Shown in pieces: positions 5,903 to 63,336 of a stretch of DNA of 64,000 nucleotides. Position numbers and translations under genes: made by a program. The stretch is from Escherichia coli (GTDB lineage: Bacteria > Pseudomonadota > Gammaproteobacteria > Enterobacterales > Enterobacteriaceae). The stretch lies in assembly GCF_044324875.1 (NCBI RefSeq), contig NZ_CP172185.1, one strand, 5' to 3'. A model generated the notes under the pieces. It did not search any database, had not been told where the DNA came from, and worked only from the letters and a program-made list of their open reading frames with translations. Each line of letters opens with the position of its first letter. The first letter of the stretch is position 1.

Positions 5903-6320
5903 TTCATGCGCCGGACACCCCGGTGCAAAACGTGTTTTGTGGCGGGGTGTCGGCAGACAAGCCACGTACTGACTGTCACAGCGCGTCAGCGTAAGAGCAC
6001 CGGCAGCAAGGGAATGACAACAATGGTGATGACGATGATGAGCAGGTTGATGCCCCTGATGACGTCATATAACCAGACAGGGCACTGTGGCTCTTCCCTG
6101 ACGATATATAACACAACAAAAAACCAGGTAAGACTGAACAGGGCCCGGTACGGAAGGGCGGTGAGGAGAAATTCCATGCTGATGTTTCCTCTTTACGGGG
6201 GGTCATTAGCGGGAAACTGTAGTGATGACCTGTTTCAGTAAACAGAAAAAATCATTAAAGATGGAATAAAATTGCGCCCCGGCGCGGGGATATGTTCCGG
6301 CATTCAGCCATGTCCGTTTT

Positions 6321-6341
6321 CCCTTAAAAATTTTCAGTTTT
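6321..6341 (+). promoter_or_regulatory. conserved upstream motif shared with 17145-17166
   Basis: see paired feature; lies in 520-bp noncoding gap before RAQPRD gene. Confidence 0.3.
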
Positions 6342-6420
6342 ACAAATAGAGTTTATCGCTGACCGGCACACCTGCCTTCTTCATGCTGTACGCACCCACA
6401 GATTCTTAACGGAGGTGCGT

Positions 6421-6762
6421 ATGTTTTCTCTTCCCGCATTTCCCCGGCGTGCCGCTGCCCTGGCAGGTACTACCGGGATGATGCTTCTTGCCATTGTGGC
6501 TGTGCCGGCTCAGGCCGCCGAAAAGGATGAGCTGGCAACGGCCATGCGTCAGCTTGACCAGGTACGGGAGGCGCTTGACCGTGCGAGAACGGTTTCCCTT
6601 CAGGCCACGCCTCATGACGGGCGTTATTTCTTCGACTACCCGCGTGCACAGGCTGACATTCAGACCATACAGGCGGGTATTGACCGTTATCTCACGCCGT
6701 CCCGTGCCCAGCCCCGAAACGGCAGTGCCGTGACCGGTGAATACCGGCGGGAGCGTCCCTGA
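6421..6762 (+). CDS. RAQPRD-motif ICE protein (exported)
   Basis: GGAGG RBS; signal peptide; motif PSRAQPRNG typical of RAQPRD family of ICE proteins. Confidence 0.55.
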   Translation: MFSLPAFPRRAAALAGTTGMMLLAIVAVPAQAAEKDELATAMRQLDQVREALDRARTVSLQATPHDGRYFFDYPRAQADIQTIQAGIDRYLTPSRAQPRNGSAVTGEYRRERP

Positions 6763-7004
6763 TGGCGCTGACGTCGGCACAGACCACGGCCTTTATGGCG
6801 GCATCCGGTGGCCTGGCAGTGAATGAGCTGCATCTGACCGCTGTGGGAATACTGGTTGCCGTTCTCTTTCTCTGGGCCGCCTGGGGACTGTCGGATGCAT
6901 GGTCCGGGTGGCGTAACGGTGACGTCAGGGAATCTTCGTTTATCTGGTTTACCGTCCGTACCGCACTGCTGCTTGTCAGCAGTATCTGGATGTTTGCGGG
7001 CTGA
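6762..7004 (+). CDS. small ICE membrane protein
   Basis: 80 aa, two hydrophobic helices, start overlaps upstream stop. Confidence 0.45.
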   Translation: MALTSAQTTAFMAASGGLAVNELHLTAVGILVAVLFLWAAWGLSDAWSGWRNGDVRESSFIWFTVRTALLLVSSIWMFAG

Positions 7005-7031
7005 TTTTCCGTTTTCTTTAAGGAGACATAC

Positions 7032-7397
7032 ATGTGTAAAAAGGTTTTTACTTTCCGTCACCTGCGTCTGGCGGGAATGGGACTGATTGCTTTTCTGCTG
7101 GGCAGTCTGACCCCGGCACTGGCCGATTTGCCCAAAATTGAGCCGCCATCATCCGGTGGGGGTGGTGGTTTTTTTAATCAACTCAAAGGCTATATCCAGG
7201 ATGGCATTGTGCTGTTTGGTCTGGTAGTTGCAGCGGCGGCCTTTGTGAAGGTGGCGGAGGCTGCCGTTACCACTTTTTCTGAGGTGCGTGACGGCAAGAC
7301 GGGCTGGGGACAGTTCGGGGCCATTATCGTGGTCGGGGTGGTGCTGCTGGTTGCGGTTATCTGGCTGCTCGGCAAATCCGCGAACATCATCCTGTAA
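7032..7397 (+). CDS. ICE membrane protein, possible conjugative pilin-like subunit
   Basis: signal-like N-terminus, Gly run (SSGGGGGFF), two C-terminal hydrophobic helices; AAGGAG RBS. Confidence 0.45.
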   Translation: MCKKVFTFRHLRLAGMGLIAFLLGSLTPALADLPKIEPPSSGGGGGFFNQLKGYIQDGIVLFGLVVAAAAFVKVAEAAVTTFSEVRDGKTGWGQFGAIIVVGVVLLVAVIWLLGKSANIIL

Positions 7398-7415
7398 TCC
7401 ACCAGAGGGCTGTTT

Positions 7416-7781
7416 ATGGAAACCATTCGTTTTCTGCCCGATCGTCTGAATGCCGAACCGACGGTGTTCCGGGGATTCACCACGCCAGAGCTGGGTCTGG
7501 CCGCACTGAGCGGTGTCTTTCTCGGTCTTCTCTGGACACTGCCACTGATACCGCTGTTCGGCTGGGTGATTATTCCCACCGGTGCCCTGCTCACTCCACT
7601 GCTTCTGGTCTGGACCGGCGGCGTGTGGATCACCCGGCTGAAACGGGGCAAACCGGATAACTGGCTCTGGCAGCGTATTGAAGAGAAAAAAGCGGCGCTG
7701 GGTGTGGGGCGCCCTGCATTTATCAGGGAAGCACAGGGCTGGTCCCTGCGTCGTTCCCGCGTCAGGGGAGGAAAAGGATGA
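7416..7781 (+). CDS. ICE membrane protein (transfer region)
   Basis: two TM helices; in-operon spacing. Confidence 0.45.
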   Translation: METIRFLPDRLNAEPTVFRGFTTPELGLAALSGVFLGLLWTLPLIPLFGWVIIPTGALLTPLLLVWTGGVWITRLKRGKPDNWLWQRIEEKKAALGVGRPAFIREAQGWSLRRSRVRGGKG

Positions 7782-8425
7782 GTCGTTTTCGTCATGCCCT
7801 GCAGGATCGTGACCAGCATATTTTGACGCTTCGTGTGTTCAGTGGTGTGCTGGCGGGGCTGCTTCTGATGGTCACCCTCGGCTGGATGTCTGCACCTGAC
7901 CGGCTGACCATCCATAATCCACCTGATTTACGTTCCGGCAGTACCCGTCCGTGGTGGGAGGTTCCGCCTTCCACTGTCTATTCCTTTGCGTATTACATTT
8001 TCCAGCAACTGAATGCCTGGCCGAAAAACGGTGAGGTGGATTATCCGGCAAAAATTCATGCCCTGTCGGCCTATCTGACACCGTCGTGCCGGGAAATCCT
8101 TGAAACGGATGCACGACGCCGTAAGGACGCGGGGGAACTGCTGGATCGTGTTCGTGTGGTGTATGAGATCCCTGAGCACGGTTACGGCGGACGTTACAAC
8201 CGTAATCCGGTCACGGTGGAAGGCCGGGACAACTGGCAGGTTCGTCTCGACTTAGTGGTGGATGAGTATTTTCATGCTGAGCCGGTCAAACGGGCGCTGG
8301 TCCGCTATCCGATGAAGGTGGTGCGTATGGAGGGCGATCCGGAACTTAATCCGTTTGCTCTGGCGCTGGACTGTTACAGCTCCACGCCGCAGCGTCTGGA
8401 AGCCGTGAAGGGAGGTGGTGAATGA
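7778..8425 (+). CDS. ICE mating-pair formation protein (VirB8/TraE-like candidate)
   Basis: single N-terminal TM helix then periplasmic domain; overlapping start/stop. Confidence 0.45.
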   Translation: MSRFRHALQDRDQHILTLRVFSGVLAGLLLMVTLGWMSAPDRLTIHNPPDLRSGSTRPWWEVPPSTVYSFAYYIFQQLNAWPKNGEVDYPAKIHALSAYLTPSCREILETDARRRKDAGELLDRVRVVYEIPEHGYGGRYNRNPVTVEGRDNWQVRLDLVVDEYFHAEPVKRALVRYPMKVVRMEGDPELNPFALALDCYSSTPQRLEAVKGGGE

Positions 8426-9342
8426 GAACCTGTGTACTGCGCAACCTGCTGCGTCCTGCCGCTGTGATGTTGTCGCTGTCAGTGATGTCCCTGACGGCGC
8501 AGGCAGATGAACTGATGAAGTGGGAGCGTATTCCGCTGGATGTCCCGCTGATGGTGGGGCAGGAGCGGGTCATTTTTGCCGATAAAAACGTGAGGGTGGG
8601 CTTTCCGCCTGCACTGAACGGCAGGCTGCGGGTGCAGAGCACCGGCGGTGCCGTCTACCTGAAAGCGGACAGCGCCTTTCCGAAAACGCGGGTTCAGCTG
8701 CAGGATGTGGAAAGCGGGGAGATGATCCTGCTGGATGTGACGGCCGCAGAAAAGGGGCCCACTGAGCCTGTCCGGATTGTGTATGACGGGGAGGTGAACA
8801 CGGTGAGCCGTGCCGGCGGCAGCGCTCCGGAGAGCGCGAAGGCGGGCAGCAGTGACGGACGTCCCGGGAAAGTCGGTGCGGATGACGGCACGCAGGCCCG
8901 CCGGACCGCCCCCCGTTATGACGAGCCCTTGCCGGTTCTGCTGACCCGGTATGCGGCACAGTCCCTGTATGCTCCGCTGCGCACCCTTGAACCGGTTGCG
9001 GGGATCAGACCGGTGGTGCCACCTCTTCCCCGGCAAATCACCACGCTTTACCCGTCTGAACCCCTGACGGTATCCCCGGTGGCGGCATGGTCCGCCGGCG
9101 GACGAACCGTGGTGGCCCTGAAACTCACCAGTACGGTGAGCCGGCGTATTGTGCTTGATCCGCGAGCCCTGCAGGGCCGTTTTGTGGCGGCCACCTTCCA
9201 GCACCGCTGGCTGGGTGCTGCCGGGACACCGGAAGACACCACAATGCTGTATGTGGTGACGGCAGGCCGCCCGGAGAAGGCCTTTGTGGCAGAGCCTGTG
9301 GCACCGCGCAGGACGGGCGGGGAGGTGAAACATGCAGATTAA
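8422..9342 (+). CDS. ICE mating-pair formation protein (VirB9/TraK-like candidate), exported
   Basis: signal peptide; operon coupling. Confidence 0.45.
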   Translation: MRTCVLRNLLRPAAVMLSLSVMSLTAQADELMKWERIPLDVPLMVGQERVIFADKNVRVGFPPALNGRLRVQSTGGAVYLKADSAFPKTRVQLQDVESGEMILLDVTAAEKGPTEPVRIVYDGEVNTVSRAGGSAPESAKAGSSDGRPGKVGADDGTQARRTAPRYDEPLPVLLTRYAAQSLYAPLRTLEPVAGIRPVVPPLPRQITTLYPSEPLTVSPVAAWSAGGRTVVALKLTSTVSRRIVLDPRALQGRFVAATFQHRWLGAAGTPEDTTMLYVVTAGRPEKAFVAEPVAPRRTGGEVKHAD

Positions 9343-10810
9343 GTCCAATACCCTGGTGAAATTTGTGGTACCTGCTGTGGTACTGGCGGGGCTGGTGATC
9401 ACGATGAAAAGCTGCAGCACACCGGAGAGCGGGAGTGAGAGTACAGCACAGAGCGGTGCGCTGGCCGGATTATCGTCAGAAGAGCTGCGTGCGCTGGGCG
9501 TGGAAGGGGACACGCCGGAGGATACCCTGCGGACCCTGGTTGCCCGCCTGAACCAGGTCAGGGATAACCAGAAAACGCTGGAGAGCCAGAATGCGCAGTT
9601 GCTGAAGGACAACGAACAACTGCGTCGCCGGGGGACGGATGTGTCCGGCCAGGTCAGTGAAGCCGTGGCGGGAATGCAGAAAACCTACGATCAGAAGCAG
9701 CGTGAACTGCAGGAGCAGCAGCGCTCCCTGATGTCGCAGATTGATGTGCTGCGGGGGCAACTGAGTGACCAGCTGACGGGAAGTCACACGAAGCTCAGCG
9801 ATATTCCTGACGGGCTGGGACTGGATTCAGGCAGTGGTTCCGGGTCGTTGATCTCGCAGGGGGCGGACGGGCTGATGTGGGTGAGTCCGGCCGATCAGTC
9901 ACAGGATGATCCGCTGAGCAGCGGCGGAAAGAGCGGTCCGCGTTTTCCGACCTCCTTCCTTGAAGATAACCCCCTGACCCGGCAGAAAGCAGCCTATGAG
10001 CAGCAGGTGAAGGGGTACAGCAATGAGCAGCAGGCGGCCACCACGCAGGCCGTGTACACCCTGCCGGAGAACTCAACCCTGACGGGCAGCCGTGCCATGA
10101 CGGCCCTGCTGGGCAGGGTGCCGGTAAACGGCACGGTGACCGATCCGTATCCGTTCAAGATCCTCGTGGGGCGCGATAACCTCACGGCAAACGGCATTGA
10201 ACTGCCGGATGTGGAGGGGGCTGTGGTGTCAGGGACGGCCAGCGGTGACTGGACGCTTTCCTGTGTGCGCGGACAGGTGAACAGCATCACCTTTGTGTTT
10301 GCTGACGGCACGGTACGCACGCTGCCACAGGCGGATGTGAACGGTACCACCAACAGCAATCAGCAGGCGAAAAACGGGAATAACGCAGGCGGGATTGGCT
10401 GGATTTCGGATGAGGATGGGATCCCGTGTATCAGCGGCACCCGTAAATCCAATGCGTCAACCTACCTGCCGACGATATTCGGGCTGGCCGCAGCCGGCGC
10501 GGCAGGGGATGCCCTGAGTGAGGGGCAGTACACCTCGCAGAACAATGTCAACGGTATAACCTCGACGCTGACCGGCAGTGCCGGTGAAGCGGCGCTGGGT
10601 AAGGCCCTTTCCGGCGGGATGAATGAGACCGCGGACTGGGTAAGACAGCGTTACGGGCAGACCTTTGATGCCATTTATGTGCCGCCGGGAAAAACGCTGG
10701 CCGTTCACATTACCCGTCAGCTGGCGATTGATTATGAAGAGCGTGGACGTCGTGTGCGTTATGACTTCACCCTGCCGGGAGAAGCGGGCGACCGGGGCGG
10801 CCTTGACTGA
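9332..10810 (+). CDS. ICE mating-pair formation protein (VirB10/TraB-like candidate)
   Basis: N-terminal TM anchor, coiled-coil region, Gly/Ser-rich linker, C-terminal domain. Confidence 0.5.
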   Translation: MQIKSNTLVKFVVPAVVLAGLVITMKSCSTPESGSESTAQSGALAGLSSEELRALGVEGDTPEDTLRTLVARLNQVRDNQKTLESQNAQLLKDNEQLRRRGTDVSGQVSEAVAGMQKTYDQKQRELQEQQRSLMSQIDVLRGQLSDQLTGSHTKLSDIPDGLGLDSGSGSGSLISQGADGLMWVSPADQSQDDPLSSGGKSGPRFPTSFLEDNPLTRQKAAYEQQVKGYSNEQQAATTQAVYTLPENSTLTGSRAMTALLGRVPVNGTVTDPYPFKILVGRDNLTANGIELPDVEGAVVSGTASGDWTLSCVRGQVNSITFVFADGTVRTLPQADVNGTTNSNQQAKNGNNAGGIGWISDEDGIPCISGTRKSNASTYLPTIFGLAAAGAAGDALSEGQYTSQNNVNGITSTLTGSAGEAALGKALSGGMNETADWVRQRYGQTFDAIYVPPGKTLAVHITRQLAIDYEERGRRVRYDFTLPGEAGDRGGLD

Positions 10811-10827
10811 ACAGGGAGAATGAGTCC

Positions 10828-11232
10828 GTGAAACGATTACTGTTCGTGATGAGTGTGGCACTGGTGCTGTCGGGCTGTGCCACCTCTAAAGAAGAGCTGC
10901 TGCCTGCCGGAGAGCAGACGATGCTGGAGCTCTGGCAGGGTAAAACCGCAGGTGGCGGTCAGCGGCATGCGCTGGCCGCCCGGGAAACGTTGCGCCGTCC
11001 CCTTACGGTAACGGAGCAGCAGGGGATGAACGCGGAGGCGTACAGCTACAGCCGGACGCAGGAAAGCGAAATCAGCCAGCAGTTTCCGCGTCTGCCGAAT
11101 CCCGACATGGTGATGTATGTGTTTCCGCATCTGGCCGGCGGTACGTCGCCGGTTCCGGGCTACAGCACGGTATTTCCTTTTTACAGCAGGACGCAGTATG
11201 CGCTGCCAGGTGAGCGTACGGAGGCTCTGTAA
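10828..11232 (+). CDS. conjugal transfer lipoprotein (TraV-like)
   Basis: lipobox LSGC at residues 15-18. Confidence 0.55.
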   Translation: MKRLLFVMSVALVLSGCATSKEELLPAGEQTMLELWQGKTAGGGQRHALAARETLRRPLTVTEQQGMNAEAYSYSRTQESEISQQFPRLPNPDMVMYVFPHLAGGTSPVPGYSTVFPFYSRTQYALPGERTEAL

Positions 11233-14081
11233 TGACATTCTCGCTTTTCAGACGCCGTGAGGAAAAAGGTACAGCAGAGACCAGGGAACGACCGGAAGCA
11301 GAAGCGGGGGCATCTTCATCGGCCTTTGTTCCGCCCTGTCCTCCGGGGGCACAGCCCCTGCGACGTCCGGGACAGATGACCCGTGATGCTGAGGCGGCGG
11401 TTTATCATGCCGGTCCGTCGGTTATTGATTTTCTGCCATGGGTGGAATATCTGGATGAGGAGCAGTGTCTGCTGCTTGACGACGGGGTGTCGGTGGGAGC
11501 GGTCTATTCGGTGACGCCGGCCGCAACGGAAGGGCGTACGGAAGAGCGCCTGGCGCAAATCAGGGACATGGTGGAGGATGCCCTGCAGGACAGTTTTGAT
11601 GAGTACGACACGCATCCCTGGGTGGTGCAGTTCTACTGTCAGGATGAAAATGATGTGGATGCGTACCTGGACTATCTGAAGGGGTATGTGAAACCCCACG
11701 CGCAGGGAACGGCATTCACGGAGGCCTGGCTGGGTGAAATGGCCCGCCATCTCAGGGGGATTGCCCGTCCTGAGGGACTGTTTACGGACACCCTGGTCAC
11801 CGGTCAGCCCTGGCGGGGACAGCAGCGACGAACCCGGATGGTGGTTTACCGTCGTATCGGGAAGAACAATAACGATCCGATGTCGCCGGTGGCGATGCTG
11901 AACCAGGTCTGCGACCGCGTGGTGTCCGCACTGGGTGGAGCCGGTATCCGCTGTACCCGGATGAACGGTCAGCAGGTGCACAGCTGGCTGCTGCGGTTAT
12001 TTAATCCGGCACCGGACTGGATTGCCCGTGAAGAGCTGTACCGGATGGCCTCACGGGTTGATCCGCGTGAGCGTGGTGATGATGTGATGCCGGTGATGAC
12101 GGATTTTGCCGAGAGCCTGTGGTTTAACCCGCCGTATTCCGATCCGGAGAACGGGGTGTGGTGGCTGGACGCCATGCCGCACTGTGCCGTGGTGGTGGAA
12201 AAGCTGCGTACGCCGCCGGAGCCGGGGACCATCACCGGAGAGATGCCCCGTGGGGAAAAAACGGTGAATGCGCTGATGGACACCTTTCCGGAGGGAACGG
12301 TGATGTGCATGACCATCGTGGTGCAGCCCCAGGACACCCTGGAGGACCGTTTCACCCGGCTGTCGAAAAATGCGGTGGGTGAGAACACGGAATCCATCCG
12401 GGCGCGTCAGGACGTGAAGGTGGTGAAGGAGCTGCTGGGGAACCGGCACAAGCTGTACCGGGCAGGGCTCACCTTTCTTCTGCGGGCAGAGGATATGGAC
12501 AGCCTGAAACGCCGGCGTGTGGAGCTGACCACGGTGCTTCTGGGGGCTGGTCTGCAGCCGGTGCGGCCTGAGTTTGACGTGGGGCCGCTGAACAGCTGGC
12601 TGCGGGCGCTGCCGATGTGTTTTGATCCGGATACGGACAAAAAGCAGTGGTACACGCGTCTGATGTGGGTACAGCACATGGCAGGATTGTTGCCGGTGAC
12701 CGGCCGGGATACGGGGACCGGACATCCGGGGTTCAGTTTTTTTAACCGGGGTGGTGATGTGCTGACTTTCGATCCGCTGAACAAGCTGGACCGTACCCAG
12801 AACGCGCATCTGCTGCTGTTCGGACCAACGGGGGCCGGTAAATCGGCCACGCTGTGTGCTTCACTGTCGCAGGTGATGGCAGTACACCGTCCCCGCCTGT
12901 TCATTGCCGAAGCGGGGAACTCGTTTGGTCTGCTGGCCGATTATTTTGAGAGTCTCGGGCTGTCGGTGAACAAAATCAGCGTCAGACCGGGAACCGGTGT
13001 GACCCTGCCGCCGTTTGCAGATGCGCATAAACTGGTTGAGGAAGGGCAGGATCTGCAGTGCGTGGATGAGCACTCACTGCCTGATATTGAGGATGAAGCC
13101 GGGGATGAAGGGGAGGATAAACGAGACATTCTGGGCGAGATGGAAATCTCAGCCAGGATGATGATCACCGGGGGGGACCCGAAAGAAGAGGCCGCGCTGA
13201 AGCGTGCGGACAGGGCGATGATCCGCGAGGCGCTGCTGATGGCCACACACCGGACATACCGTGAGGGGCGGCAGATGCTGCCGGAGGATTTGCAGTCCGC
13301 CCTGTGGGAGATCTCCCGTGACAGCAGCCGTAACGATGTGCGCAATGCAAAGGCGGCGGAGATGGCGGAGTCTCTGGGGATGTTCACCCAGAAGGGGAGT
13401 TTTGAGGCGGAGTTGTTCAACCGTGAGGGCGAACTGTGGCCGGAAGCGGATGTGACGCTGATTGACCTGGGGCATCTGGCCCGTGAGGGGTATGAGGCAC
13501 AGATGGCGCTGACCATGGTGTCGATGACCAACATGATCAATAACATTGCCGAACGTGATCAGTATCTGGGGCGTGACATCGTGTTTGCGGTGGATGAGGC
13601 GCATATCGTGACGGTCAATCCGCTGCTTTCGCCGTACATGACGAAGGTTGTGAAGATGTGGCGTAAGCTGGGAGCGTGGCTGTGGCTGGCGACACAGAAC
13701 CTGAAGGATTATCCGGATGTGTCGGAGAAGATGCTGAATATGGCGGAATGGTGGGTGTGTCTGACGATGCCACCGGAGGAAGTGAACAACATTGCACGCT
13801 TTAAATCACTGACGGAAGAGCAGAAAGCGGTGCTGATGTCGGCGAGTAAGCTGTCCGGCTGTTATACCGAAGGCGTGGTGCTGGCGAAACAGATTGAGGC
13901 GCTGTTTCGTGCGGTGCCGCCAAGTCTCTATCTGGCGCTGGGCATGACGGAGAAAGAAGAGAAGGCTGAGCGGCGCATGCTGATGAAGGAACATAACTGC
14001 AGCGAACTGGAGGCGGCGTTCCATGTGGCGCGTAAGCTGGACAGGCTGCGTGGTCTGTCGGCCATGGAGGCGGATGTATGA
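11232..14081 (+). CDS. traC: conjugative transfer ATPase (VirB4/TraC-like), ICE class
   Basis: 949 aa; Walker A GPTGAGKS; Walker B-like FAVDEAH. Confidence 0.8.
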   Translation: MTFSLFRRREEKGTAETRERPEAEAGASSSAFVPPCPPGAQPLRRPGQMTRDAEAAVYHAGPSVIDFLPWVEYLDEEQCLLLDDGVSVGAVYSVTPAATEGRTEERLAQIRDMVEDALQDSFDEYDTHPWVVQFYCQDENDVDAYLDYLKGYVKPHAQGTAFTEAWLGEMARHLRGIARPEGLFTDTLVTGQPWRGQQRRTRMVVYRRIGKNNNDPMSPVAMLNQVCDRVVSALGGAGIRCTRMNGQQVHSWLLRLFNPAPDWIAREELYRMASRVDPRERGDDVMPVMTDFAESLWFNPPYSDPENGVWWLDAMPHCAVVVEKLRTPPEPGTITGEMPRGEKTVNALMDTFPEGTVMCMTIVVQPQDTLEDRFTRLSKNAVGENTESIRARQDVKVVKELLGNRHKLYRAGLTFLLRAEDMDSLKRRRVELTTVLLGAGLQPVRPEFDVGPLNSWLRALPMCFDPDTDKKQWYTRLMWVQHMAGLLPVTGRDTGTGHPGFSFFNRGGDVLTFDPLNKLDRTQNAHLLLFGPTGAGKSATLCASLSQVMAVHRPRLFIAEAGNSFGLLADYFESLGLSVNKISVRPGTGVTLPPFADAHKLVEEGQDLQCVDEHSLPDIEDEAGDEGEDKRDILGEMEISARMMITGGDPKEEAALKRADRAMIREALLMATHRTYREGRQMLPEDLQSALWEISRDSSRNDVRNAKAAEMAESLGMFTQKGSFEAELFNREGELWPEADVTLIDLGHLAREGYEAQMALTMVSMTNMINNIAERDQYLGRDIVFAVDEAHIVTVNPLLSPYMTKVVKMWRKLGAWLWLATQNLKDYPDVSEKMLNMAEWWVCLTMPPEEVNNIARFKSLTEEQKAVLMSASKLSGCYTEGVVLAKQIEALFRAVPPSLYLALGMTEKEEKAERRMLMKEHNCSELEAAFHVARKLDRLRGLSAMEADV

Positions 14082-14464
14082 TGTGTCTGAAATACCCGAA
14101 ACCGGAGGTGATGACAGAGGTCATGCCCGGGGGCAGCGTGTTTTTTCTGCCGCCGCAGGGAAAACCGGGTGTTGCGGATCTGGCGCAACCGCATCTGCAG
14201 CGCCTGCGGTCACAGCTTGAACGCAGGCTGGGTACGCTGCATCGTGTGGTGTGTCAGCCCCAGCGGGTGGGGCAGAGCAGCAGTGTGGCCGTGACAGCAG
14301 AAGGGGCGTGTGGCGAGGTGCATCTTCTGCTGACAGTAGGGGGGCATGAGAGCTGGCCCTCTGAAGAGGAATACCGGCATCCGCGCTGGTATATCCAGGT
14401 GGTGGATGCGGCCGATCTGTTCTACCTGCTGCTCTGGCTGTGTGATGGCGGGCAGGAAGCGTGA
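14078..14464 (+). CDS. ICE hypothetical protein; last 62 bp duplicated downstream of iha
   Basis: start overlaps traC stop; C-terminus VVDAADLFYLLLWLCDGGQEA repeated at 16806-16870. Confidence 0.4.
   Translation: MMCLKYPKPEVMTEVMPGGSVFFLPPQGKPGVADLAQPHLQRLRSQLERRLGTLHRVVCQPQRVGQSSSVAVTAEGACGEVHLLLTVGGHESWPSEEEYRHPRWYIQVVDAADLFYLLLWLCDGGQEA
14399..14460. repeat. direct repeat copy 1 (62 bp) flanking iha insertion
   Basis: 59/62 nt identical to 16806-16867. Confidence 0.8.
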
Positions 14465-14619: not shown

Positions 14620-16707
14620 ATGCGAATAACCACTCTGGCTTCAGTAGCCATCCCTTGTCTCGGATTTTCAGTCAGCAGCATGGCTGCGGAAGATGTGATG
14701 ATAGTCACCGCATCCGGCTATGAAAAAAAATTAACCAGTGCAGCTGCGAGTGTTTCGGTGATCAGTCAGGAGGACTTGCGATCCAGCCAGTATCATGATC
14801 TTGGGGAGGCACTGAGATCCGTAGAGGGGGTGGATGTTGAAAGCGGTACGGGTAAAACCGGTGGACTGGAAATCAGCATCCGTGGAATGCCTGCCAGTTA
14901 TACGCTGATACTGATTGATGGTGTCCGTCAGGGCGGGAGCAGAGACGTAACCCCGAACGGTTTTTCTGCCATGAACACGGGGTTTATGCCACCTCTGGCC
15001 GCCATCGAACGTATTGAGATTATCAGGGGCCCCATGTCCACTCTGTACGGCTCTGATGCCATGGGGGGCGTGGTGAATATCATCACCAAAAAGAATGCAG
15101 ACAAATGGCATTCTTCAGTTAATGCCGGGCTGAACCTGCAGGAAAGTAACAAATGGGGGAACAGCAGCCAGTTTAATTTCTGGAGCAGCGGCCCCCTGGT
15201 GGATAATTCTCTCAGCCTGCAGGTACGTGGCAGCACGCAGCAGCGACAGGGCTCATCGGTCACATCACTGAGCGGCACCTCAGCCACGCGCATCCCTTAT
15301 CCAACAGAGTCACAGAATTATAATGCAGGTGCTCGTCTTGACTGGAAAGCAACGGACAAGGATATGTTCTGGCTTGATATGGATACTGCACGACAGCGTT
15401 ATGATAACCGGGACGGCCAGCTGGGCAGCCTTACTGGCGGTTATGATCGTACCCTGCGCTATGAACGTAATAAAATTTCGGCAGGTTATGATCATGCATT
15501 CACCTTCGGAACCTGGAAGTCATCCCTGAACTGGAATGAGACGGAAAATAAAGGCCGTCAGCTTGTACGCAGCGTACTGAAGCGTGATAAATGGGGACTT
15601 GCCGGCCAGCCGAGGGAGCTTAAGGAGTCGAATTTTATCCTGAATTCCTTACTGCTTGCACCTGTGGGTGAATCTCACCTGGTTACTGTCGGTGGTGAGT
15701 ACCAGAACTCATCCATGAAAGACGGGGTTGTTCTCACCAGTACAGGCGAAACCTTCCGGCAGAAAAGCTGGTCGGCATTTGTTGAGGATGAGTGGCATAT
15801 CACGGATGCGGTTGCACTGACTGTGGGCAGTCGTTATGAACATCATGAGGTGTTCGGAGGACACCTCAGTCCGCGGGCATATATGGTCTGGGATGTGGCT
15901 GATGAGTGGACGCTGAAAGGTGGGGTGACCACGGGATATAAGGCACCCGGCATGGGGCAGTTACATAAGGGGATCAGCGGTGTGTCCGGTCAGGGGCGTA
16001 CGAATCTTCTCGGTAACCCGGACCTGAAGCCGGAGGAGAGTGTCAGCTATGAAGCGGGCGTGTATTACGATAATCATGCCGGTCTGAACGCCAATATCAC
16101 GGGCTTTATGACAGAGTTCTCCAACAAGATCGTATCTTATTCTATTGATGATAATACCCGCAGCTATACAAACAGCGGAAAGGCCAGGACTCAGGGTGTG
16201 GAGTTTGCCGGCACACTGCCTCTGTGGTCAGAGGATGTGACGCTGTCTCTGAATTATACCTGGACGCAGAGTGAACAACGGGATGGGGATAATAAAGGTG
16301 CACCACTGAGTTACACCCCTGAGCATATGGTGAATGCGAAACTGAACTGGCAGATTACTGAAGATGTGTCATCATGGCTGGGTGCCCGTTACCGCGGGAA
16401 AACGCCACGTTTCACCCAGAATTATTCGTCACTCTCAGCTGTACAGAAGAAAGTGTATGATGAGAAAGGTGAATATCTGAAAGCCTGGACGGTACTGGAT
16501 GCGGGCATGTCGTGGAAAGTGACGGATGCACTGACGCTGAATGCAGCGGTGAATAATGTGCTTAACAAGGATTACAGTGACGTAAGTCTGTATCGTGCCG
16601 GCAGTGGTACGCTTTATGCGGGTGATTACTTCCAGACGGGGGCATCGACAACAGGTTATGTGATACCGGAGAGAAATTACTGGATGTCGCTGAGCTATCA
16701 GTTCTGA
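14620..16707 (+). CDS. iha: TonB-dependent outer-membrane siderophore receptor/adhesin, Iha/IrgA-like
   Basis: 695 aa; signal peptide; TonB box EDVMIVTAS; plug motif IEIIRGPMSTLYGSDAMGGVVNIITKK; C-terminal YQF; N-terminus matches recalled Iha sequence. Confidence 0.75.
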   Translation: MRITTLASVAIPCLGFSVSSMAAEDVMIVTASGYEKKLTSAAASVSVISQEDLRSSQYHDLGEALRSVEGVDVESGTGKTGGLEISIRGMPASYTLILIDGVRQGGSRDVTPNGFSAMNTGFMPPLAAIERIEIIRGPMSTLYGSDAMGGVVNIITKKNADKWHSSVNAGLNLQESNKWGNSSQFNFWSSGPLVDNSLSLQVRGSTQQRQGSSVTSLSGTSATRIPYPTESQNYNAGARLDWKATDKDMFWLDMDTARQRYDNRDGQLGSLTGGYDRTLRYERNKISAGYDHAFTFGTWKSSLNWNETENKGRQLVRSVLKRDKWGLAGQPRELKESNFILNSLLLAPVGESHLVTVGGEYQNSSMKDGVVLTSTGETFRQKSWSAFVEDEWHITDAVALTVGSRYEHHEVFGGHLSPRAYMVWDVADEWTLKGGVTTGYKAPGMGQLHKGISGVSGQGRTNLLGNPDLKPEESVSYEAGVYYDNHAGLNANITGFMTEFSNKIVSYSIDDNTRSYTNSGKARTQGVEFAGTLPLWSEDVTLSLNYTWTQSEQRDGDNKGAPLSYTPEHMVNAKLNWQITEDVSSWLGARYRGKTPRFTQNYSSLSAVQKKVYDEKGEYLKAWTVLDAGMSWKVTDALTLNAAVNNVLNKDYSDVSLYRAGSGTLYAGDYFQTGASTTGYVIPERNYWMSLSYQF

Positions 16708-16805
16708 TAACAACAAAACCGATATAACGCACAGTAAAATGTAAACATGCTGCTGCTGTCACTGCAGGCAGTGGCAGCAGCGTATAACCGCAGATGTTTG
16801 TCCAT

Positions 16806-16867
16806 GTGGTGGATGCGGTCGATCTGTTCTGTCTGCTGCTCTGGCTGTGTGATGGCGGGCAGGAAGC
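16806..16867. repeat. direct repeat copy 2 (62 bp) flanking iha insertion
   Basis: re-encodes VVDAVDLFCLLLWLCDGGQEA plus stop. Confidence 0.8.
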
Positions 16868-17144
16868 CTGAAAAAACTGCCGCTACTGGCAACTGTGTCG
16901 TGGTGGCATGTTACTGGCAGGTGGTTTACGGAGTATGGGCCCAATTCTGGCCTGCCGGAACATGCCCTTATAACCTTTAACACAGCGGTTACATAAAAAA
17001 CAATGTCTTTTGTGCACAGCAGTATTGTGGCTGAAAGTGAAATAAAAGCGCGATATTATACTGCTTCGCGTCCGGTTGTCATTATCATGGATAGTGCGTT
17101 ATGTTTATAAAGGCGTGACGGACGCTTAATTCTCACGCAACGCA

Positions 17145-17166
17145 CCCCTCTTAAATTTTCAGTTTC
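17145..17166 (+). promoter_or_regulatory. conserved upstream motif shared with 6321-6341
   Basis: CCCCTCTTAAATTTTCAGTTTC vs CCCTTAAAAATTTTCAGTTTT, each 80-100 bp upstream of an ICE operon start. Confidence 0.3.
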
Positions 17167-17244
17167 CGGTTTTGAATTTATTGCTGCTATTGGTGCTGCT
17201 TATGCGCACGCTGTAAGTCGGATATTGTCTGACGGAGGCGTACA

Positions 17245-17640
17245 ATGTACCGGATTTTCTGTTCCCTGTTTTTCCTGCCGCTGGCAGCGTCTGCCGGCAC
17301 AACAATTTATACCGATTCTCAGCACCTCCCCGTTAATCCTCCCGATGGTGTCAGGGTGGTTCTGCTGGATGCACCGGAGCAGCTTCAGACCCGCTTTTTT
17401 GGCACGTTGCCTGCTGATGCGGATAAGGCTGAAGCGGTGGTCAGGGCACGTATGCAGTCTCCCGAATGGCAGATGATGCAGGCGGAACTGGCTGCTCATT
17501 ACCGCGATGTGGCACATGCCTGGTCGCTGGGCGTGAAGAAATATCCTGCCGTGGTGTTTGATGACAGTGAGGTGGTTTACGGCATCACGGATGTGGTGGT
17601 GGCCGGGAAACTCCGTACTGAGGGAGGAGTTCAGCCATGA
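17245..17640 (+). CDS. ICE exported protein, function unknown
   Basis: signal peptide; GGAGG RBS. Confidence 0.45.
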   Translation: MYRIFCSLFFLPLAASAGTTIYTDSQHLPVNPPDGVRVVLLDAPEQLQTRFFGTLPADADKAEAVVRARMQSPEWQMMQAELAAHYRDVAHAWSLGVKKYPAVVFDDSEVVYGITDVVVAGKLRTEGGVQP

Positions 17641-18611
17641 TGACCCTGAAAAGTCGTCTGCGTGCCTGCGTACTGTTACTGAGTGTGGCATCACTGCCTC
17701 TGGCGTCTGCGTCACTGAATACTGCCAGCATTATCGCCAGTGCGGCGGCACCGGACTGTATCAGCTGGCGTGTCAGCGGGATTTGTTACTGGCTTTACTG
17801 CAGCGCGTCTGGCTGTACGGTCAGAACTTCCGTGAAGGTGACACATTTCATCCCGGAAGTGGTTATTTCCACCTATACGGCACCGGGTGGTAATCCCTGG
17901 AAAGAGATGTCGCTGGTCAGCCGGACCGCAGGTGGCCCGGAGAATGCCATCACTGACGGCCTGTCCGGGCTGAGTGCCGGCGGGGGAAATCCGGCGGATA
18001 TGAAAATACAGGGGAAGCGCCGTTCAGCCATTCGTTTCAAATACGCAGATGCGCTGGGTCATCCGGCCACACAGCTTATCGGCGGGATGGTACCCGGATT
18101 CAGCTGTGATTCACCGGTGACACCGGCCATGCCCTATTTCCTCAGTACCCTGGACAGCATCGTCTGGCGAACGGGATTACCTGAATCCCTGTATCCAGAG
18201 GCACAGGTTCCCGGCAAACGCGAGATTGGCACCCAGGCCGATAAAAACATGTGGGGGAGCGTTTATCCCCGGAGTGGTTTTGTGATGCAGACCGATGATG
18301 ACCGGGCAGCGGCGGTGGTGGCCCAGCGGGTGGCCGACATTATCACGCGGACGGGGGAGCCGCATGTCTACAGGGAGGTTAAGGGCGTGAAACGTGACGG
18401 CTACTGGCCCCCGGAGGCGGTGGAGGAAAACACCGGCACCCGAAATCACAAATGGCAGCGACTGACGCCGTCAGTGTCGCGTTCCTGTGCCGTTTTCCCG
18501 GATGGTGAACATCAGGCAGCGGAGAACGGTAATGCCGCCTTTTCACTGTGGCAGCCCTATAGCTGCTGTAAAAAGCGCGGGCAGCGATTTCTTGGCAGTA
18601 CGAATTTTTAA
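17637..18611 (+). CDS. TraU-like conjugal transfer protein
   Basis: signal peptide; Cys-rich periplasmic protein about 320 aa at expected operon position. Confidence 0.5.
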   Translation: MMTLKSRLRACVLLLSVASLPLASASLNTASIIASAAAPDCISWRVSGICYWLYCSASGCTVRTSVKVTHFIPEVVISTYTAPGGNPWKEMSLVSRTAGGPENAITDGLSGLSAGGGNPADMKIQGKRRSAIRFKYADALGHPATQLIGGMVPGFSCDSPVTPAMPYFLSTLDSIVWRTGLPESLYPEAQVPGKREIGTQADKNMWGSVYPRSGFVMQTDDDRAAAVVAQRVADIITRTGEPHVYREVKGVKRDGYWPPEAVEENTGTRNHKWQRLTPSVSRSCAVFPDGEHQAAENGNAAFSLWQPYSCCKKRGQRFLGSTNF

Positions 18612-18617
18612 GGAACC

Positions 18618-20039
18618 ATGATGATGAAGATGAAAACAGGTGTGGTGGCACTGAGTGTGATGCTGTGCTGCAGTACTCCGGTGATGGCTGATCTTCTTTC
18701 TCTGCCGAAACTGAATGACAGCACGTTCGGTTACGGGAAATCCGTTGATGGCGCCGTATCCGACAAACTGTTCTATACGCTGGGTGGCGGCTCGGTGATC
18801 TCACAGCCGGCCACGCGCAGCAACATGCAGAAGCTGGGTATGGACCTGGGCTGGAGCAGCGATCTGATGTGCGGCAACTTTGACCTGAAGACCACGGTGG
18901 GTAATCAGCTTAACGGCGTGACTGAAGGCTTTAAAAATCTGATGGGGGATGTGATTCAGGGGGCGACCGGCGCCGTTGCCAGTCTGCCGGCGATGGTGAT
19001 ACAGCGTGCCAATCCAGGCCTGTACGACATGATCACCAACGGTGTGCTGCAGGCGAATGTGGCTTTCGACAAGGCGCAACTGAACTGCCAGAACATGGCA
19101 AAACGGATGATGGACTTTTCTGATCGCAGCAAATGGACGCAGGCTGCGATGCTGGAAGAGTACAAGAAGGTGGTGAACAGCGGTGACGGTGATGCGGTGA
19201 AAGGGGATGAGGCCGGGCGTCAGGCCACCGGGAAGGAGGGTAAGAAATGGATTGGCGGACAGCAGCGCGGCGGGGCAGGTCAGCCCGCCATCCGGCCGGT
19301 GCATGATCTGACAGCGGCCGGGTTTAACATGATGAACAGTCTGCCCGTGACCAGTAGGGCCAGCGTCAGTGCCGGTAACTGTAACGGCAGCGCCTGTGAG
19401 ATGTTCCGGAATGCAGAAGAGGCCGCTAAGGCGGTGGTAAAGGTGCTGGGTGATCGTACCATGCGCACCTGTACGGATGCGAAGGCCTGTACCAGCGGGG
19501 ATAATGAACAGCAACAGGGAACCGTTGCAGGAACGGGGTTTGCGCCGGTGCTGGAAGAGGCGACTAGGGTGAACACGGAACAATTGGTCCGTCTGGTGAA
19601 TGGTCAGGAAAAACCCACTGCAGAGAATCTGGCAAAACTGAAAACCGGCAGTCTGGCTGTATCTGCAGGGGTGATCCATGCCCTGCGTCGTGACCCGGAC
19701 AATATGTCCCTGACGTCACGGCTGGCGGGAGAACTGGCGATGGCGCATACCGTGGAAACGGCTCTGGTGATGCGCAGAATGCTGCTCACCGGGATGTCTG
19801 AGCCGTACGCGGCCGCAGAAGATGCCGCGATTCAGGAAGGCGACCGGCGTATCGCTGCACTGGACAGGGAAATCATGGCGCTGAAGAACGAGATGGAGCT
19901 GAAACGCGATCTGGCACGTAACAGCGTGCTGACCATCATTGAACGCGACAATGAGCGCGTGGGCAGCAACCCGATGATCCAGCCTGCAGACAATACTGAC
20001 AGTCGTGTCCGGGCACTGGACATTCCGGACGGGGAGTAA
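18618..20039 (+). CDS. ICE exported transfer protein
   Basis: signal peptide, 473 aa, C-terminal coiled coil. Confidence 0.45.
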   Translation: MMMKMKTGVVALSVMLCCSTPVMADLLSLPKLNDSTFGYGKSVDGAVSDKLFYTLGGGSVISQPATRSNMQKLGMDLGWSSDLMCGNFDLKTTVGNQLNGVTEGFKNLMGDVIQGATGAVASLPAMVIQRANPGLYDMITNGVLQANVAFDKAQLNCQNMAKRMMDFSDRSKWTQAAMLEEYKKVVNSGDGDAVKGDEAGRQATGKEGKKWIGGQQRGGAGQPAIRPVHDLTAAGFNMMNSLPVTSRASVSAGNCNGSACEMFRNAEEAAKAVVKVLGDRTMRTCTDAKACTSGDNEQQQGTVAGTGFAPVLEEATRVNTEQLVRLVNGQEKPTAENLAKLKTGSLAVSAGVIHALRRDPDNMSLTSRLAGELAMAHTVETALVMRRMLLTGMSEPYAAAEDAAIQEGDRRIAALDREIMALKNEMELKRDLARNSVLTIIERDNERVGSNPMIQPADNTDSRVRALDIPDGE

Positions 20040-20043
20040 GCGT

Positions 20044-20403
20044 ATGGCGATGACTCAGGGGACAAAAGCGGGGCTGGTTCTGAAGGGCGTTAAGGTGGCC
20101 GGCATGTGGCTGTCGGGCCTTATTGCCATGATGATTCTGGCCCTCCTGGTGGCTGATACGGGCATGCGGAATACGCAGGAAGTGGAAGCATTACGGCTCT
20201 GGCTCCACGAGACACGTTTCGGATGGCTGGGGTGGCGGGTGTGCCTCTACGGTGCGCTGGCATGGGGATGCCGGAAAACCTGGCGTGCGCCGGGGTTCAG
20301 ACCGGAATACCGCCGTCCCTTTGCGCGGATTTGTCTGGTCAGTGCCCTGTTTGCGTTACTTTGCGAGTACAGCATTTTTTTCGGACCGGGGGTTGAACTG
20401 TGA
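20044..20403 (+). CDS. small ICE membrane protein
   Basis: GGGGAG RBS; TM helices; table ORF 20005 trimmed to ATG 20044. Confidence 0.4.
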   Translation: MAMTQGTKAGLVLKGVKVAGMWLSGLIAMMILALLVADTGMRNTQEVEALRLWLHETRFGWLGWRVCLYGALAWGCRKTWRAPGFRPEYRRPFARICLVSALFALLCEYSIFFGPGVEL

Positions 20404-21923
20404 CCACGAATAACTATCTGGAACACTTTCTGACCCTGCTGGGCTGGCTGGTGAATAATGGCCTGTGGGATCTGCTGACGGGGACGGGGCTGTTTGCCCT
20501 GCCACTGGCCTTCAGGGTTATCGGGATCTGGCTGAAAGTGCGGGAAGAGGGGGCGGATGAGGGAAATAAAGGGATGCTCTCACTGCCCCGCATTGAGCAT
20601 GCCCTGTATGGTGCATTTTTTGTGATGGTGGCCTGTTGTGTGCCGCTGGTACAGGTGACGCTGGACACGCTGAAATTTGATCGCAGCCGTGCCCAGACCT
20701 GCGGTGTGTGGACACCGAAAGCACCCGGTGATACCGGGTACAGCGGGGTGATCAGCAGCCTGGGTGACAGGACAGCGGCCGCCCCGGTGTGGTGGGTGGT
20801 GGTGCATAAACTCTCCAAAGGTGTGACGCAGGCTGCTGTGGCTTCCATTCCCTGCCGGCCGGATATACGGCAACTGCGTTTTGAGGTGCAGCGGACATTC
20901 ATTGCGAACCGGGCGCTGGCCGACGAGCTGCAGGATTTCACCAACGACTGTTACTCGCTGGCGCTATATCAGTGGAAGCAGCGTGACCAGGGGATGACGA
21001 AGGACAGGAAGCTGCTTTCGGATATCAGCTGGATTGGCAGCAGTACGTTCATGCAGGGTGACTACGGAACACTGCAGTCGAAAATGCCACGTGCGGCATT
21101 CCCGTGGAATAGCGCCCGTGACAGCGGCCGTCCGGATACGGGACGGGGTGGTTATCCCACATGCCGTGAATGGTGGAGTGACAGTAGTGTCGGGCTGAAG
21201 AAGCGGGTGACAGGGGAAGTCGATGAAGGACTGTGGTTGCGTATTTCGGCGGCAATGAAAATGCTGGGGAACGCGCAGGCGAACTACCAGGAGGAAATCA
21301 TCAAACGTCTGGTGAGTCCGGCGAACCTGACCCTGTCACAGGGTGGTGAGGTGTACCGCGGCTATGGCGGTAATGCAGATATGACGGCGGCGAATGCGGT
21401 CACGCGTGCAGCAGGCACGGCGGGGTCTGCCGTTGCGAGTCTGGCAGCGTTTCCGGCGTTTGATGCGATGCGGCAGGCGCTGCCGATGGTGCAGAGTATT
21501 CTGCTGATGGCGGTGTATATCATGCTTCCGTTGATTCTGGCGTTTGCGGCGTATGAATTCAGCACGCTGATCACACTGACGTTTGTGGTGTTTGCGCTGA
21601 ACTTCCTGACGTTCTGGTGGGAGCTGGCGCGGTGGCTTGACAGCTGGATGCTGACGGCCTTGTACAGTTCGGACACGCATTCCCGAGTGAACATGATGGG
21701 GCTGCAGAACACGTCGGATGATATCATCATGAATTTTGTGATGGGCACGATGTTTATTATATTGCCAGCGGTGTGGCTTGGGGCTTTATCCTGGGCGGGT
21801 ATTAGCGCAGGTGTTGCTATTGCTAATGCAGCCAGAGATGGAACAAGTGCAGCACATCAAGCAGCTTCAAAGGCAGGAGATCTTGTTGGGAAAGTAGGAA
21901 ATTCTTTAGGTAAAAATCAATAA
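20400..21923 (+). CDS. TraG_N-like mating-pair stabilisation membrane protein; C-terminal tail AT-rich
   Basis: GTG start overlapping upstream stop; multiple TM helices; composition shifts near 21760. Confidence 0.55.
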   Translation: MTTNNYLEHFLTLLGWLVNNGLWDLLTGTGLFALPLAFRVIGIWLKVREEGADEGNKGMLSLPRIEHALYGAFFVMVACCVPLVQVTLDTLKFDRSRAQTCGVWTPKAPGDTGYSGVISSLGDRTAAAPVWWVVVHKLSKGVTQAAVASIPCRPDIRQLRFEVQRTFIANRALADELQDFTNDCYSLALYQWKQRDQGMTKDRKLLSDISWIGSSTFMQGDYGTLQSKMPRAAFPWNSARDSGRPDTGRGGYPTCREWWSDSSVGLKKRVTGEVDEGLWLRISAAMKMLGNAQANYQEEIIKRLVSPANLTLSQGGEVYRGYGGNADMTAANAVTRAAGTAGSAVASLAAFPAFDAMRQALPMVQSILLMAVYIMLPLILAFAAYEFSTLITLTFVVFALNFLTFWWELARWLDSWMLTALYSSDTHSRVNMMGLQNTSDDIIMNFVMGTMFIILPAVWLGALSWAGISAGVAIANAARDGTSAAHQAASKAGDLVGKVGNSLGKNQ

Positions 21924-26033: not shown

Positions 26034-26152
26034 TGCTTGTTGCTTGTTGCTTGTTGCTTGTTGCTTGTTGCTTGTTGCTTGTTGCTTGTTGCTTGTTGCT
26101 TGTTGCTTGTTGCTTGTTGCTTGTTGCTTGTTGCTTGTTGCTTGTTGCTTGT
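26034..26152. repeat. heptanucleotide microsatellite (TGCTTGT)x17
   Basis: 17 perfect tandem units, 119 bp, beginning 50 bp upstream of the methyltransferase ATG. Confidence 0.9.
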
Positions 26153-62591: not shown

Positions 62592-62810
62592 TTATTCCGG
62601 CTGAACTCTGCTGCATGAGAATGCGGTGACGTTCACTTTCACACTGAACGATTTACCGGCCTCTTTTTCTTTTAAAAACAGCCTGACGCATTCAGGCTCA
62701 GTCATCGGTGTGTTCTGAAAACGCACCCAGGATACCGGTGCACCACCAGGCTTCAGGATGGTGGCTTCAATCCGGTATTTATGCGGTGTGGTGTCTGTTG
62801 TTGCTGTCAT
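62592..62810 (-). CDS. small hypothetical protein upstream of pilL
   Basis: 72 aa ORF. Confidence 0.3.
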   Translation of the reverse strand: MTATTDTTPHKYRIEATILKPGGAPVSWVRFQNTPMTEPECVRLFLKEKEAGKSFSVKVNVTAFSCSRVQPE

Positions 62811-63336
62811 TCATGGCTCCTGTTGCCGGTTTCCGGTCCCGGAAAAACAGGCGACATCAGCAACAAGGGGAAAAACGCGATGTCGCCTGAAAGGTACTGG
62901 TGCAGCGGTGCGTTGTACGGACGCAGGTCCGCACAACCGGAAATACACGGGATGATTCGGTCAGTGTATTTTCGTGTTGTGCGCCTGTACTGATACGGCA
63001 GGGTGTGATGAGTGTTACCTGTGGCTGCAGGCGCGGCACGTCACTCATAACGTAGCATTCTGTTTCCTCCTCAGCCCGGCTTCAGGGCGTTGCCGCAATA
63101 CCCGATTGTTAAAGAGCCTTACCGGCATGGTGTCCGGTGTCACCGCGCGGATAACGATACGGCGGTGTCTGAAGGGATGATGCTGCGGCGCTCTGCACAT
63201 GGCGACGATTAATTCTTTTTGTGTTTCTGAAAATTTATTGCCGGGAAATTTCTGGTGTGACAGGGTGAATTAATTCTGGTCAGCGACGCTCCTGAGAAGG
63301 CAGAGTGCGCTGACATTTCGTGAACGGAGGAATGCC

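Follow-up and report, generated by a model that had tools for sequence, protein, structure and literature searches.

Two T4SS operons and a divergent relaxase–pilus region

The 64-kb stretch of Escherichia coli DNA analysed here (the window) is part of an ICE of the PFGI-1/pKLC102/SPI-7/ICEclc (MPF_G) family, of which E. coli TUM9803 and CM2 carry near-identical versions. Since the window begins inside the ICE, TUM9803 supplied the left half of the backbone. Two runs of T4SS genes lie on the plus strand. T4SS operon 1 (6421–14464) encodes RAQPRD, TIGR03758, TIGR03745, TIGR03750, PFL_4703, TIGR03749, TIGR03752 and TIGR03751 proteins, a TraC ATPase and a 128-aa ORF, and T4SS operon 2 (17245–21923) encodes TIGR03757, TIGR03756 and TIGR03755 proteins, a 132-aa ORF and a protein with a TraG N-terminal domain. 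Towards the end of the window, a divergent intergenic region separates the UvrD-helicase/TraI relaxase operon from the DUF1187/type IVb pilus operon.

An initial annotation of this DNA had picked out two similar strings, CCCTTAAAAATTTTCAGTTTT at 6321–6341 and CCCCTCTTAAATTTTCAGTTTC at 17145–17166, as a conserved element ahead of two operons. Both are found at these positions, 80–100 nt 5′ of an ATG, that of a RAQPRD-family gene at 6421 and that of a TIGR03757-family gene at 17245. Each gene opens a run of ICE T4SS genes, and the Shine–Dalgarno (SD) sequence ACGGAGG precedes both. The two sites have the exact 13-mer AAATTTTCAGTTT in common, a match that about 0.1% of 2000 dinucleotide shuffles of the two 180-nt upstream regions reach.

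The string first noted at the RAQPRD gene is thus real and shared, but its 21 nt make up only the distal half of a larger module, and the module stands at four operon heads in this ICE rather than at two. Overlooked in the initial annotation were the in-register similarity further 3′ (with GARTTTATYGCTG 11 nt on and CAYGCTGT 20 nt after that), a third copy on the minus strand (63236–63177) and a fourth, looser copy on the plus strand (63246–63306). Counted on both strands, the 64-kb window has three occurrences of the 10-mer AAATTTTCAG against 0.19 expected (at least three copies in 0 of 100 shuffles), all of them at ICE operon heads. There are likewise three copies of AAATTTTCAG-N11-GARTTWATYG in the window against 0 expected, and the relaxed pattern AWWTTT-N15-KARTTWAY gives four matches against 0.03 expected, all at ICE operon heads. 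Three of the four module copies start 91–95 nt from the first start codon.

The motif is common to several core promoters; elsewhere on the ICE, in the left half and the cargo, nothing exceeds shuffle level except a weak hit at 26276 (minus strand). Position weight matrix (PWM) scans of the left half of the ICE (TUM9803) and of the whole of SGI-4 returned no further strong copies, and the heads of the PFL_4669, pilL2, ParA, STY4528 and STY4534 genes show a degenerate resemblance at most. In total the module is present in four copies in the window, two in SGI-4 and seven in pKLC102. Other occurrences of the AT-rich 9-mer TTTTCAGTT in the window (19636, 44193, 54257 and 54936) have no module context and were rejected.

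Architecture of the module and its putative core promoter

The module is about 60 bp long and consists of block 1 (AAATTTTCAG), 11 variable nucleotides, block 2 (GARTTWATYG), a weak −35-like hexamer, 17–18 variable nucleotides and a −10-like CAYNNT. Block 2 is a direct repeat of block 1 (ARTTTWYNG) at a spacing of 21 bp, or two helical turns. The assignment of the −35 and −10 hexamers is one that we infer from the pattern of conservation described below.

At site 1 (plus strand), which heads T4SS operon 1, block 1 (AAATTTTCAG, 6328–6337) is the core of the motif first noted and is conserved in both the alignment and the information profile. Block 2 (GAGTTTATCG, 6349–6358) begins 21 nt after the start of block 1 and is the best-conserved block of the module. 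It is followed by the putative weak core promoter (6359–6387), made up of the −35-like CTGACC (6359–6364), a 17-nt variable spacer and the −10-like CATGCT (6382–6387), which is placed by the conservation of CAYNNT. If CATGCT is the −10 element, block 1 would be centred near −61.5 and transcription is predicted to start near 6394. Site 2 (plus strand), heading T4SS operon 2, repeats this layout: block 1 (AAATTTTCAG, 17153–17162) lies inside the second of the two strings first noted, block 2 (GAATTTATTG) occupies 17174–17183, and the putative core promoter (17184–17212) comprises CTGCTA (17184–17189), a 17-nt spacer and the −10-like CACGCT (17207–17212), with a predicted start near 17219.

Sites 3 and 4 stand back to back in the divergent intergenic region. 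Site 3 (63177–63236, minus strand) contains AAATTTTCAG (63236–63227), GAATTAATCG (63215–63206), the −35-like TCGCCA (63205–63200), a 17-nt spacer and CATCAT (63182–63177), and faces the DUF1187 gene (62592–62810, minus strand) and the type IVb pilus (pil) operon. It has a PWM score of 47.9, against a shuffle maximum of −2.7, and is kept in ICE variants of 75% identity. The looser site 4 (63246–63306, plus strand) has AAATTTCTGG (63246–63255), GAATTAATTC (63267–63276), the −35-like TGGTCA (63277–63282), an 18-nt spacer and CAGAGT (63301–63306). It lies 91 nt 5′ of the ATG (63337) of the relaxase operon, and its blocks are kept in the related loci L054 and L055.

Across 37 distinct copies, information content is concentrated in three places and the spacers hold nearly none. 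In block 1 it resides in AATTTT, the following CAG being variable and less conserved than block 2; the strongest signal is AAAGAGTTTAT.GCTGA, that is, block 2 with its flanks, and the third is GCA..CT. We read CAYNNT as the −10 element because positions 2 (A) and 6 (T) are invariant across all three classes of copy while the inner positions vary. A scan of the site 1 and site 2 regions for canonical sigma-70 promoters (at least 4/6 per hexamer, 9/12 overall, spacer of 16–18 nt) gave no match inside either module, the putative hexamers scoring about 4/6 and 3/6, which fits dependence on an activator. A sigma-54 reading (GG-N10-GC) was rejected by eye, as one site gives a loose match and the other none, and the pattern is not conserved.

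The leader that follows CAYNNT is about 25–30 nt long with a strong SD at sites 1, 2 and 4, and about 370 nt long at site 3. In both T4SS operons, inverted repeats (6388–6423 and 17213–17247) would let the SD and AUG of the first gene pair with the region of the predicted start. The pairing partners are TACGCACC and GGTGCGTA for RAQPRD and CTGTCAGA and TCTGACGG for TIGR03757, and the 5′ arm lies in the 3′ part of the third block. In the site 1 leader (6388–6423, plus strand), GTACGCACC (6388–6396) can pair with GGTGCGTAT (6414–6422), an arm that overlaps the SD GGAGG (6411–6415) and the ATG (6421), with a ΔG of −14.2 kcal/mol and a z score of −2.6. For the E. coli, Salmonella and Serratia versions the hairpin has z scores of −2 to −6; those of Pantoea and Xenorhabdus show a weak hairpin or none. 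Each operon has its own arm sequences, and these also vary from genus to genus, Serratia and Pantoea included. This evidence consists of single-sequence folds and z scores and is mixed, and MAFFT places the Serratia stem, which has a different loop length, out of register.

Of the long site 3 leader (62811–63176, minus strand), which precedes DUF1187, ICE variants with 75% identity retain several segments, among them a GC hairpin (GCCCTGAAGCCGGGC), a mini-ORF of five codons (MLRYE-stop here, MLRRE-stop in the variants) and a strong SD. This leader may be a leader-peptide or attenuation element.

The module is conserved across related ICEs

The initial annotation had named absence of the motif from related ICEs as an observation that would speak against it. 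The opposite was found in relatives chosen by gene homology and not by the motif (n = 11: six divergent E. coli ICEs of 72–84% nucleotide identity, two Klebsiella elements, Salmonella SGI-4, one Serratia and one Pantoea element), every one of which carries the module at equivalent positions. It lies 5′ of the RAQPRD gene in 11/11 relatives, the copy in the most distant Klebsiella element being diverged, and 5′ of the TIGR03757 gene in all nine whose examined locus included that gene. The alignment is free of gaps from block 1 to the ATG, so that the spacing to the start codon is fixed, and the blocks are near-invariant while the spacers and the upstream DNA vary among the E. coli ICE variants, Klebsiella, SGI-4, Serratia and Pantoea. 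BLAST similarity to the window begins at query position 138–150, which is the motif, and the DNA further 5′ is unrelated cargo.

A pattern scan of about 100,000 species genomes, one per species, gave 36 matches (in which the blocks are conserved by construction), of which 23 are in Enterobacterales. Of these 23, 22 are placed at one constant distance directly 5′ of a homologue of RAQPRD (15) or TIGR03757 (7), in Erwinia, Pantoea, Mixta, Chimaeribacter, Xenorhabdus and Rosenbergiella, and six species have both sites on one contig. The remaining match, in Candidatus Pantoea edessiphila, has no RAQPRD or TIGR03757 gene downstream and looks like chance, as do the 13 matches outside Enterobacterales, which come from AT-rich, unrelated genomes that lack such a gene.

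About 168 other E. coli genomes and strain ABU 83972 (NC_017631.1 4942021–4942132) contain a 112-bp remnant with 78% identity that spans the module from block 1 to the first RAQPRD codons; among the matches listed, no annotated feature lies under it. The ABU 83972 copy, the one whose neighbourhood was inspected, is inside a pap-fimbriae island. The remnant is probably a fossil of a decayed ICE of the MPF_G family.

Relation to ICEclc, pKLC102/PAPI-1 and FlhDC-type systems

A module of this kind is already described for ICEclc, a related Pseudomonas element of the same superfamily (MPF_G; PFGI-1, pKLC102, SPI-7, ICEclc). The ICEclc promoters P67231, P58432, PtraI, Pint and others are transfer-competence promoters that depend on BisDC (PMC9286271, PMC12409273), and eight of the ICEclc promoters, including P67231 and P58432, share a MEME motif (PMC9286271 S3 Fig). 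The master activator of transfer competence is composed of the ParB-like BisD and the DUF2857 protein BisC, the latter linked to FlhC by Phyre2 modelling (PMC7423338). ChIP places BisC peaks at the core promoters; BisD spreads outward from sites that resemble parS (PMC12409273).

Several features of the enterobacterial module have a match in ICEclc. The operon heads are orthologous: P67231 has its counterpart in the RAQPRD T4SS operon, P58432 in the TIGR03757 operon and PtraI in the relaxase operon. In both elements the motif is common to several core promoters and found nowhere else, and a ParB-like (BisD) and a DUF2857 (BisC) protein are encoded. The distance from the end of block 2 to the ATG is 59 nt at site 1, equal to that published for P67231, and the RAQPRD and TIGR03757 genes are 8.4 kb apart here when cargo is left out, compared with 8.8 kb between orf67231 and orf58432. 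Positional orthology with the ICEclc promoters is established by an ICEclc-like element on an Enterobacter plasmid (L017), which has motif copies at both heads: GGCTGTTCTCATTGTTTGCGG at the RAQPRD head, close to the GCGGGTTCCTATTGTTTGCAG of P67231 (PMC9286271 S3 Fig), and CGGATTCCGATTGTTGACTG at the TIGR03757 head.

The two modules differ in sequence and in detail. The motif is AAATTTTCAG-N11-GARTTWATYG here but of the GTTTCC-N-TTGCA type in ICEclc, and the blocks here form a direct repeat at a spacing of 21 bp, while the ICEclc site has been described as a weak inverted repeat at 12 bp. Clear copies are fewer here (four), and the upstream cascade of MfsR, TciR, BisR and AlpA is not evident. 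There is a loose resemblance of GAGTTTATCGCTG to GTTTCCTG...TTGCA of ICEclc, to which the GAGTATTTCCTGCTG of pKLC102 is intermediate; the operators are at most candidate homologues.

pKLC102 and PAPI-1 have the same backbone and operon heads as the E. coli ICE, and the second block of the pKLC102 version resembles block 2. In pKLC102 the module takes the form AAAAAATACCCC-N11-GAGTATTTCCTGCTG and occurs at seven places, all on the plus strand. Six copies start 92–102 nt 5′ of the annotated first gene of the PFL_4669, pil2, TIGR03759–traD, RAQPRD, TIGR03757 and mobH–int operons. The seventh is a duplicate of the TIGR03757 module that stands before cargo; the two TIGR03757-type copies, at 74761–74800 and 77737–77776 in record coordinates, flank a block of oxidoreductase, DUF1641 and methyltransferase genes, which suggests capture of this cargo under a copied transfer promoter. 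The E. coli ICE, unlike pKLC102 and PAPI-1, has neither tprA nor ndpA2. At 9335–13115 of the pKLC102 locus L059, yejK (NdpA2) and an Arc-family gene (TprA) lie immediately 5′ of the genes for the ParB-like and DUF2857 proteins, in the same orientation, and the published effects of TprA and NdpA2 on PAPI-1 could come about partly through the BisDC homologues.

The arrangement also recalls the promoters controlled by FlhD4C2, SetCD and AcaCD (class II flagellar genes and the transfer operons of SXT/R391 and IncC). In those systems every head of a transfer or flagellar operon has a box, 5′ of a poor −35 or overlapping it, that a single FlhDC-like master activator binds. A weak match to FlhD is found for the DUF2857 protein of the E. 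coli ICE. The box sequence, the ICE family and the T4SS type are different from those systems, and the candidate partner is a ParB-type CTP clamp, not FlhD.

A probable activator-dependent transfer promoter

We consider it probable that this motif serves as a promoter-distal half-site within a transfer-promoter module that is conserved among ICEs and depends on an activator, for which a BisDC-type pair is the likeliest candidate. By analogy, the module is best read as the enterobacterial counterpart of the BisDC-dependent promoters of ICEclc. The conservation, fixed spacing and operon-head location of the module support, at the level of sequence, the suggestion in the initial annotation of a common regulator site or specialised promoter coordinating the transfer genes. 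In the mechanism that we propose, the core promoter would be too weak to fire alone. An activator encoded by the ICE would bind blocks 1 and 2, centred near −61.5 and −40.5 (classic activator positions), and would recruit or remodel RNA polymerase, such that all operons for the mating apparatus and DNA processing would switch on together.

The likeliest activator would be the ParB-like clamp protein together with the DUF2857/FlhC-like protein from the left half of the same backbone; both the binding of an activator and the identity of the binding protein we infer. The near-identical TUM9803 ICE, which differs in its cargo, encodes a TIGR03764 ParB protein of 549 aa (E = 1e-113) and a DUF2857 protein (E = 5.8e-66) in the part of the element outside the window. 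The DUF2857 proteins of the E. coli ICE and SGI-4, which share the motif, are 76% identical, whereas those of the E. coli ICE and pKLC102, whose motifs differ, are 32% identical; on these comparisons the version of the motif tracks the divergence of DUF2857. Several observations count against the proposed mechanism. There are only four strong or clear copies here, compared with 7 in pKLC102 and 8–11 in ICEclc, the resemblance to the 27-bp ICEclc motif is only loose, and a search of the left half of the ICE (TUM9803) for a bisS-like repeated palindrome gave nothing convincing. In addition, the inverted repeat across the predicted start and the SD would fit better with a start 5′ of block 3.

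Another reading takes blocks 1 and 2 themselves as the core promoter, with TTTTCA as −35 and TATCGC or TATTGC as −10, so that a dedicated regulator would be superfluous. The CGCAYSCTGT block would then lie in a 5′ untranslated region of about 60 nt and supply the 5′ arm of an SD-sequestering hairpin. Exactly 17 nt separate TTTTCA from TATCGC, and the hairpins between block 3 and the SD described above point the same way, with arm sequences that differ between genera. The putative −10 nevertheless never ends in T in 37 distinct copies (TATCGC, TATTGC, TAATCG, TAACGG, TACTGC), the canonical scan finds nothing, and the hairpin is weak or absent in Pantoea and Xenorhabdus, so we regard this arrangement as improbable. 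We give similarly little credence to the proposal that the AT-rich blocks are sites for host factors, either for nucleation and silencing by H-NS, which would keep the acquired transfer genes silent, or for an UP-element-like contact with the alpha C-terminal domain, which would boost a weak promoter. The region of blocks 1 and 2 is strongly AT-rich. The high-affinity motif of H-NS is TCGATAAATT, and, compared by eye with this consensus, the reverse complement of block 2 at sites 1–3 (GCGATAAACT, GCAATAAATT and ACGATTAATT) agrees at 8/10 positions. The H-NS-like protein MvaT represses transfer promoters of PAPI-1 (PMC8565334). The fixed register to the core promoter and the invariant G/C letters within the blocks are instead typical of a dedicated regulator, and the pKLC102 version is clade-specific and GC-richer yet occupies the same positions. 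Silencing by H-NS and specific activation are not mutually exclusive and may coexist.

A dedicated regulator need not be of BisDC type, and another ICE protein might bind the blocks: a TprA-like RHH protein, a member of the InrR/STY4534 family or the DUF2786 protein. TprA directly binds 13 PAPI-1 promoters, among them those of T4SS operons (PMC8565334); the pKLC102 yejK and Arc-family genes adjoin the genes for the ParB-like and DUF2857 proteins on their 5′ side; and the conserved backbone includes two uncharacterised genes, that for STY4534 and that for DUF2786, the latter located between those for the ParB-like and DUF2857 proteins. The annotations of the E. coli ICE and of SGI-4, however, list no Arc/RHH or YejK gene, small backbone ORFs scanned against PHROGs and NCBIfam gave no match to a regulator family (RHH-type), and tprA and ndpA2 are reported only from Pseudomonas ICEs (PMC12388829). 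The TprA site mapped at pilL2 lies at −254 to −287 (PMC8565334), about 200 bp 5′ of the pKLC102 module at about −92 to −53 of the same gene, and the module is therefore not the TprA site. Regulators of these kinds seem to us a poor prospect. The last alternative, that the similarity is a functionless leftover of an ancient duplication of an upstream region, or chance in AT-rich DNA, could be entertained while two sites were known and 9-mers such as TTTTCAGTT were seen elsewhere in the window. Four copies against 0.03 expected, a fixed distance to the start codon, conservation that begins exactly at the motif, and blocks retained in different genera despite divergence of the spacers and of the sequence at synonymous level leave it a negligible probability, and the comparative data effectively refute it.

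Cargo borders and a possible fold-back control

Sites 1 and 2 border cargo hot spots, because unrelated cargo lies immediately 5′ of the motif. The intergenic regions just 5′ of the modules (5903–6320 and 14620–16980) are cargo hot spots across the relatives, and other ICEs have iha, omptin, ars genes, RND efflux genes and AraC genes at the same two places. In the window, the cargo just 5′ of site 2 (14620–16980, plus strand) comprises a gene for a TonB-dependent receptor of PRK13486 type in an iha-like position (14620–16707) and a small ORF (16747–16980). This 2.4-kb insertion is missing from the otherwise near-identical TUM9803 ICE and is not part of the module.

Elsewhere in the window, a perfect 17-copy heptanucleotide repeat occupies 26034–26152, its unit reading TGCTTGT on the plus and ACAAGCA on the minus strand. 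It is located immediately 5′ of, or in the 5′ end of, a gene for an EcoRI-family adenine methyltransferase (24829–25983, minus strand), which is followed by an HNH endonuclease gene (23641–24813). This locus looks like a phase-variable restriction–modification system carried as ICE cargo. The weak, degenerate module-like sequence at 26276 (minus strand; PWM score of 11.5 against a shuffle maximum of −2.7) is just 5′ of the repeat.

A tentative idea, which we think unlikely but worth stating, is that the module serves as a promoter cassette that stands at the downstream edge of the cargo-integration hot spots and is insulated by fold-back of read-through transcripts. Because the 5′ arm of the leader hairpin spans the predicted start, only transcripts entering from the cargo would be able to form the hairpin. 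Read-through from, for example, the TonB-receptor gene would then fold and hide the ribosome-binding site, and transcripts from the activator-dependent promoter would lack the 5′ arm and be translated. Expression of a toxic T4SS would in that case be uncoupled from expression of the cargo. Fold-back inhibition controls translation of the IS10 and IS50 transposases, and the likeness lies in an inverted repeat that spans the predicted start and the SD, with both arms held only by read-through transcripts. Unlike in IS10 and IS50, fold-back here is purely conjectural and depends on the predicted start, and the hairpin is not conserved in all lineages.

Implications for the control of ICE transfer

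A literature search found no description of the module for the enterobacterial clade, and to our knowledge the control of transfer in these enterobacterial ICEs is essentially unstudied. The backbone, represented by SPI-7, SGI-4 and E. coli ICEs with iha-like receptors, restriction–modification systems and metal resistance, spreads virulence and resistance genes among Enterobacterales. A cis-module of about 60 bp in front of four operons and a named pair of candidate activator proteins provide a direct handle on transfer control and support reporter fusions, forced activation of transfer and the prediction of islands that are still inducible. The E. coli, pKLC102 and ICEclc types have the same architecture with an operator and a DUF2857 protein that co-vary, and their comparison could yield a recognition code for BisC-type proteins.
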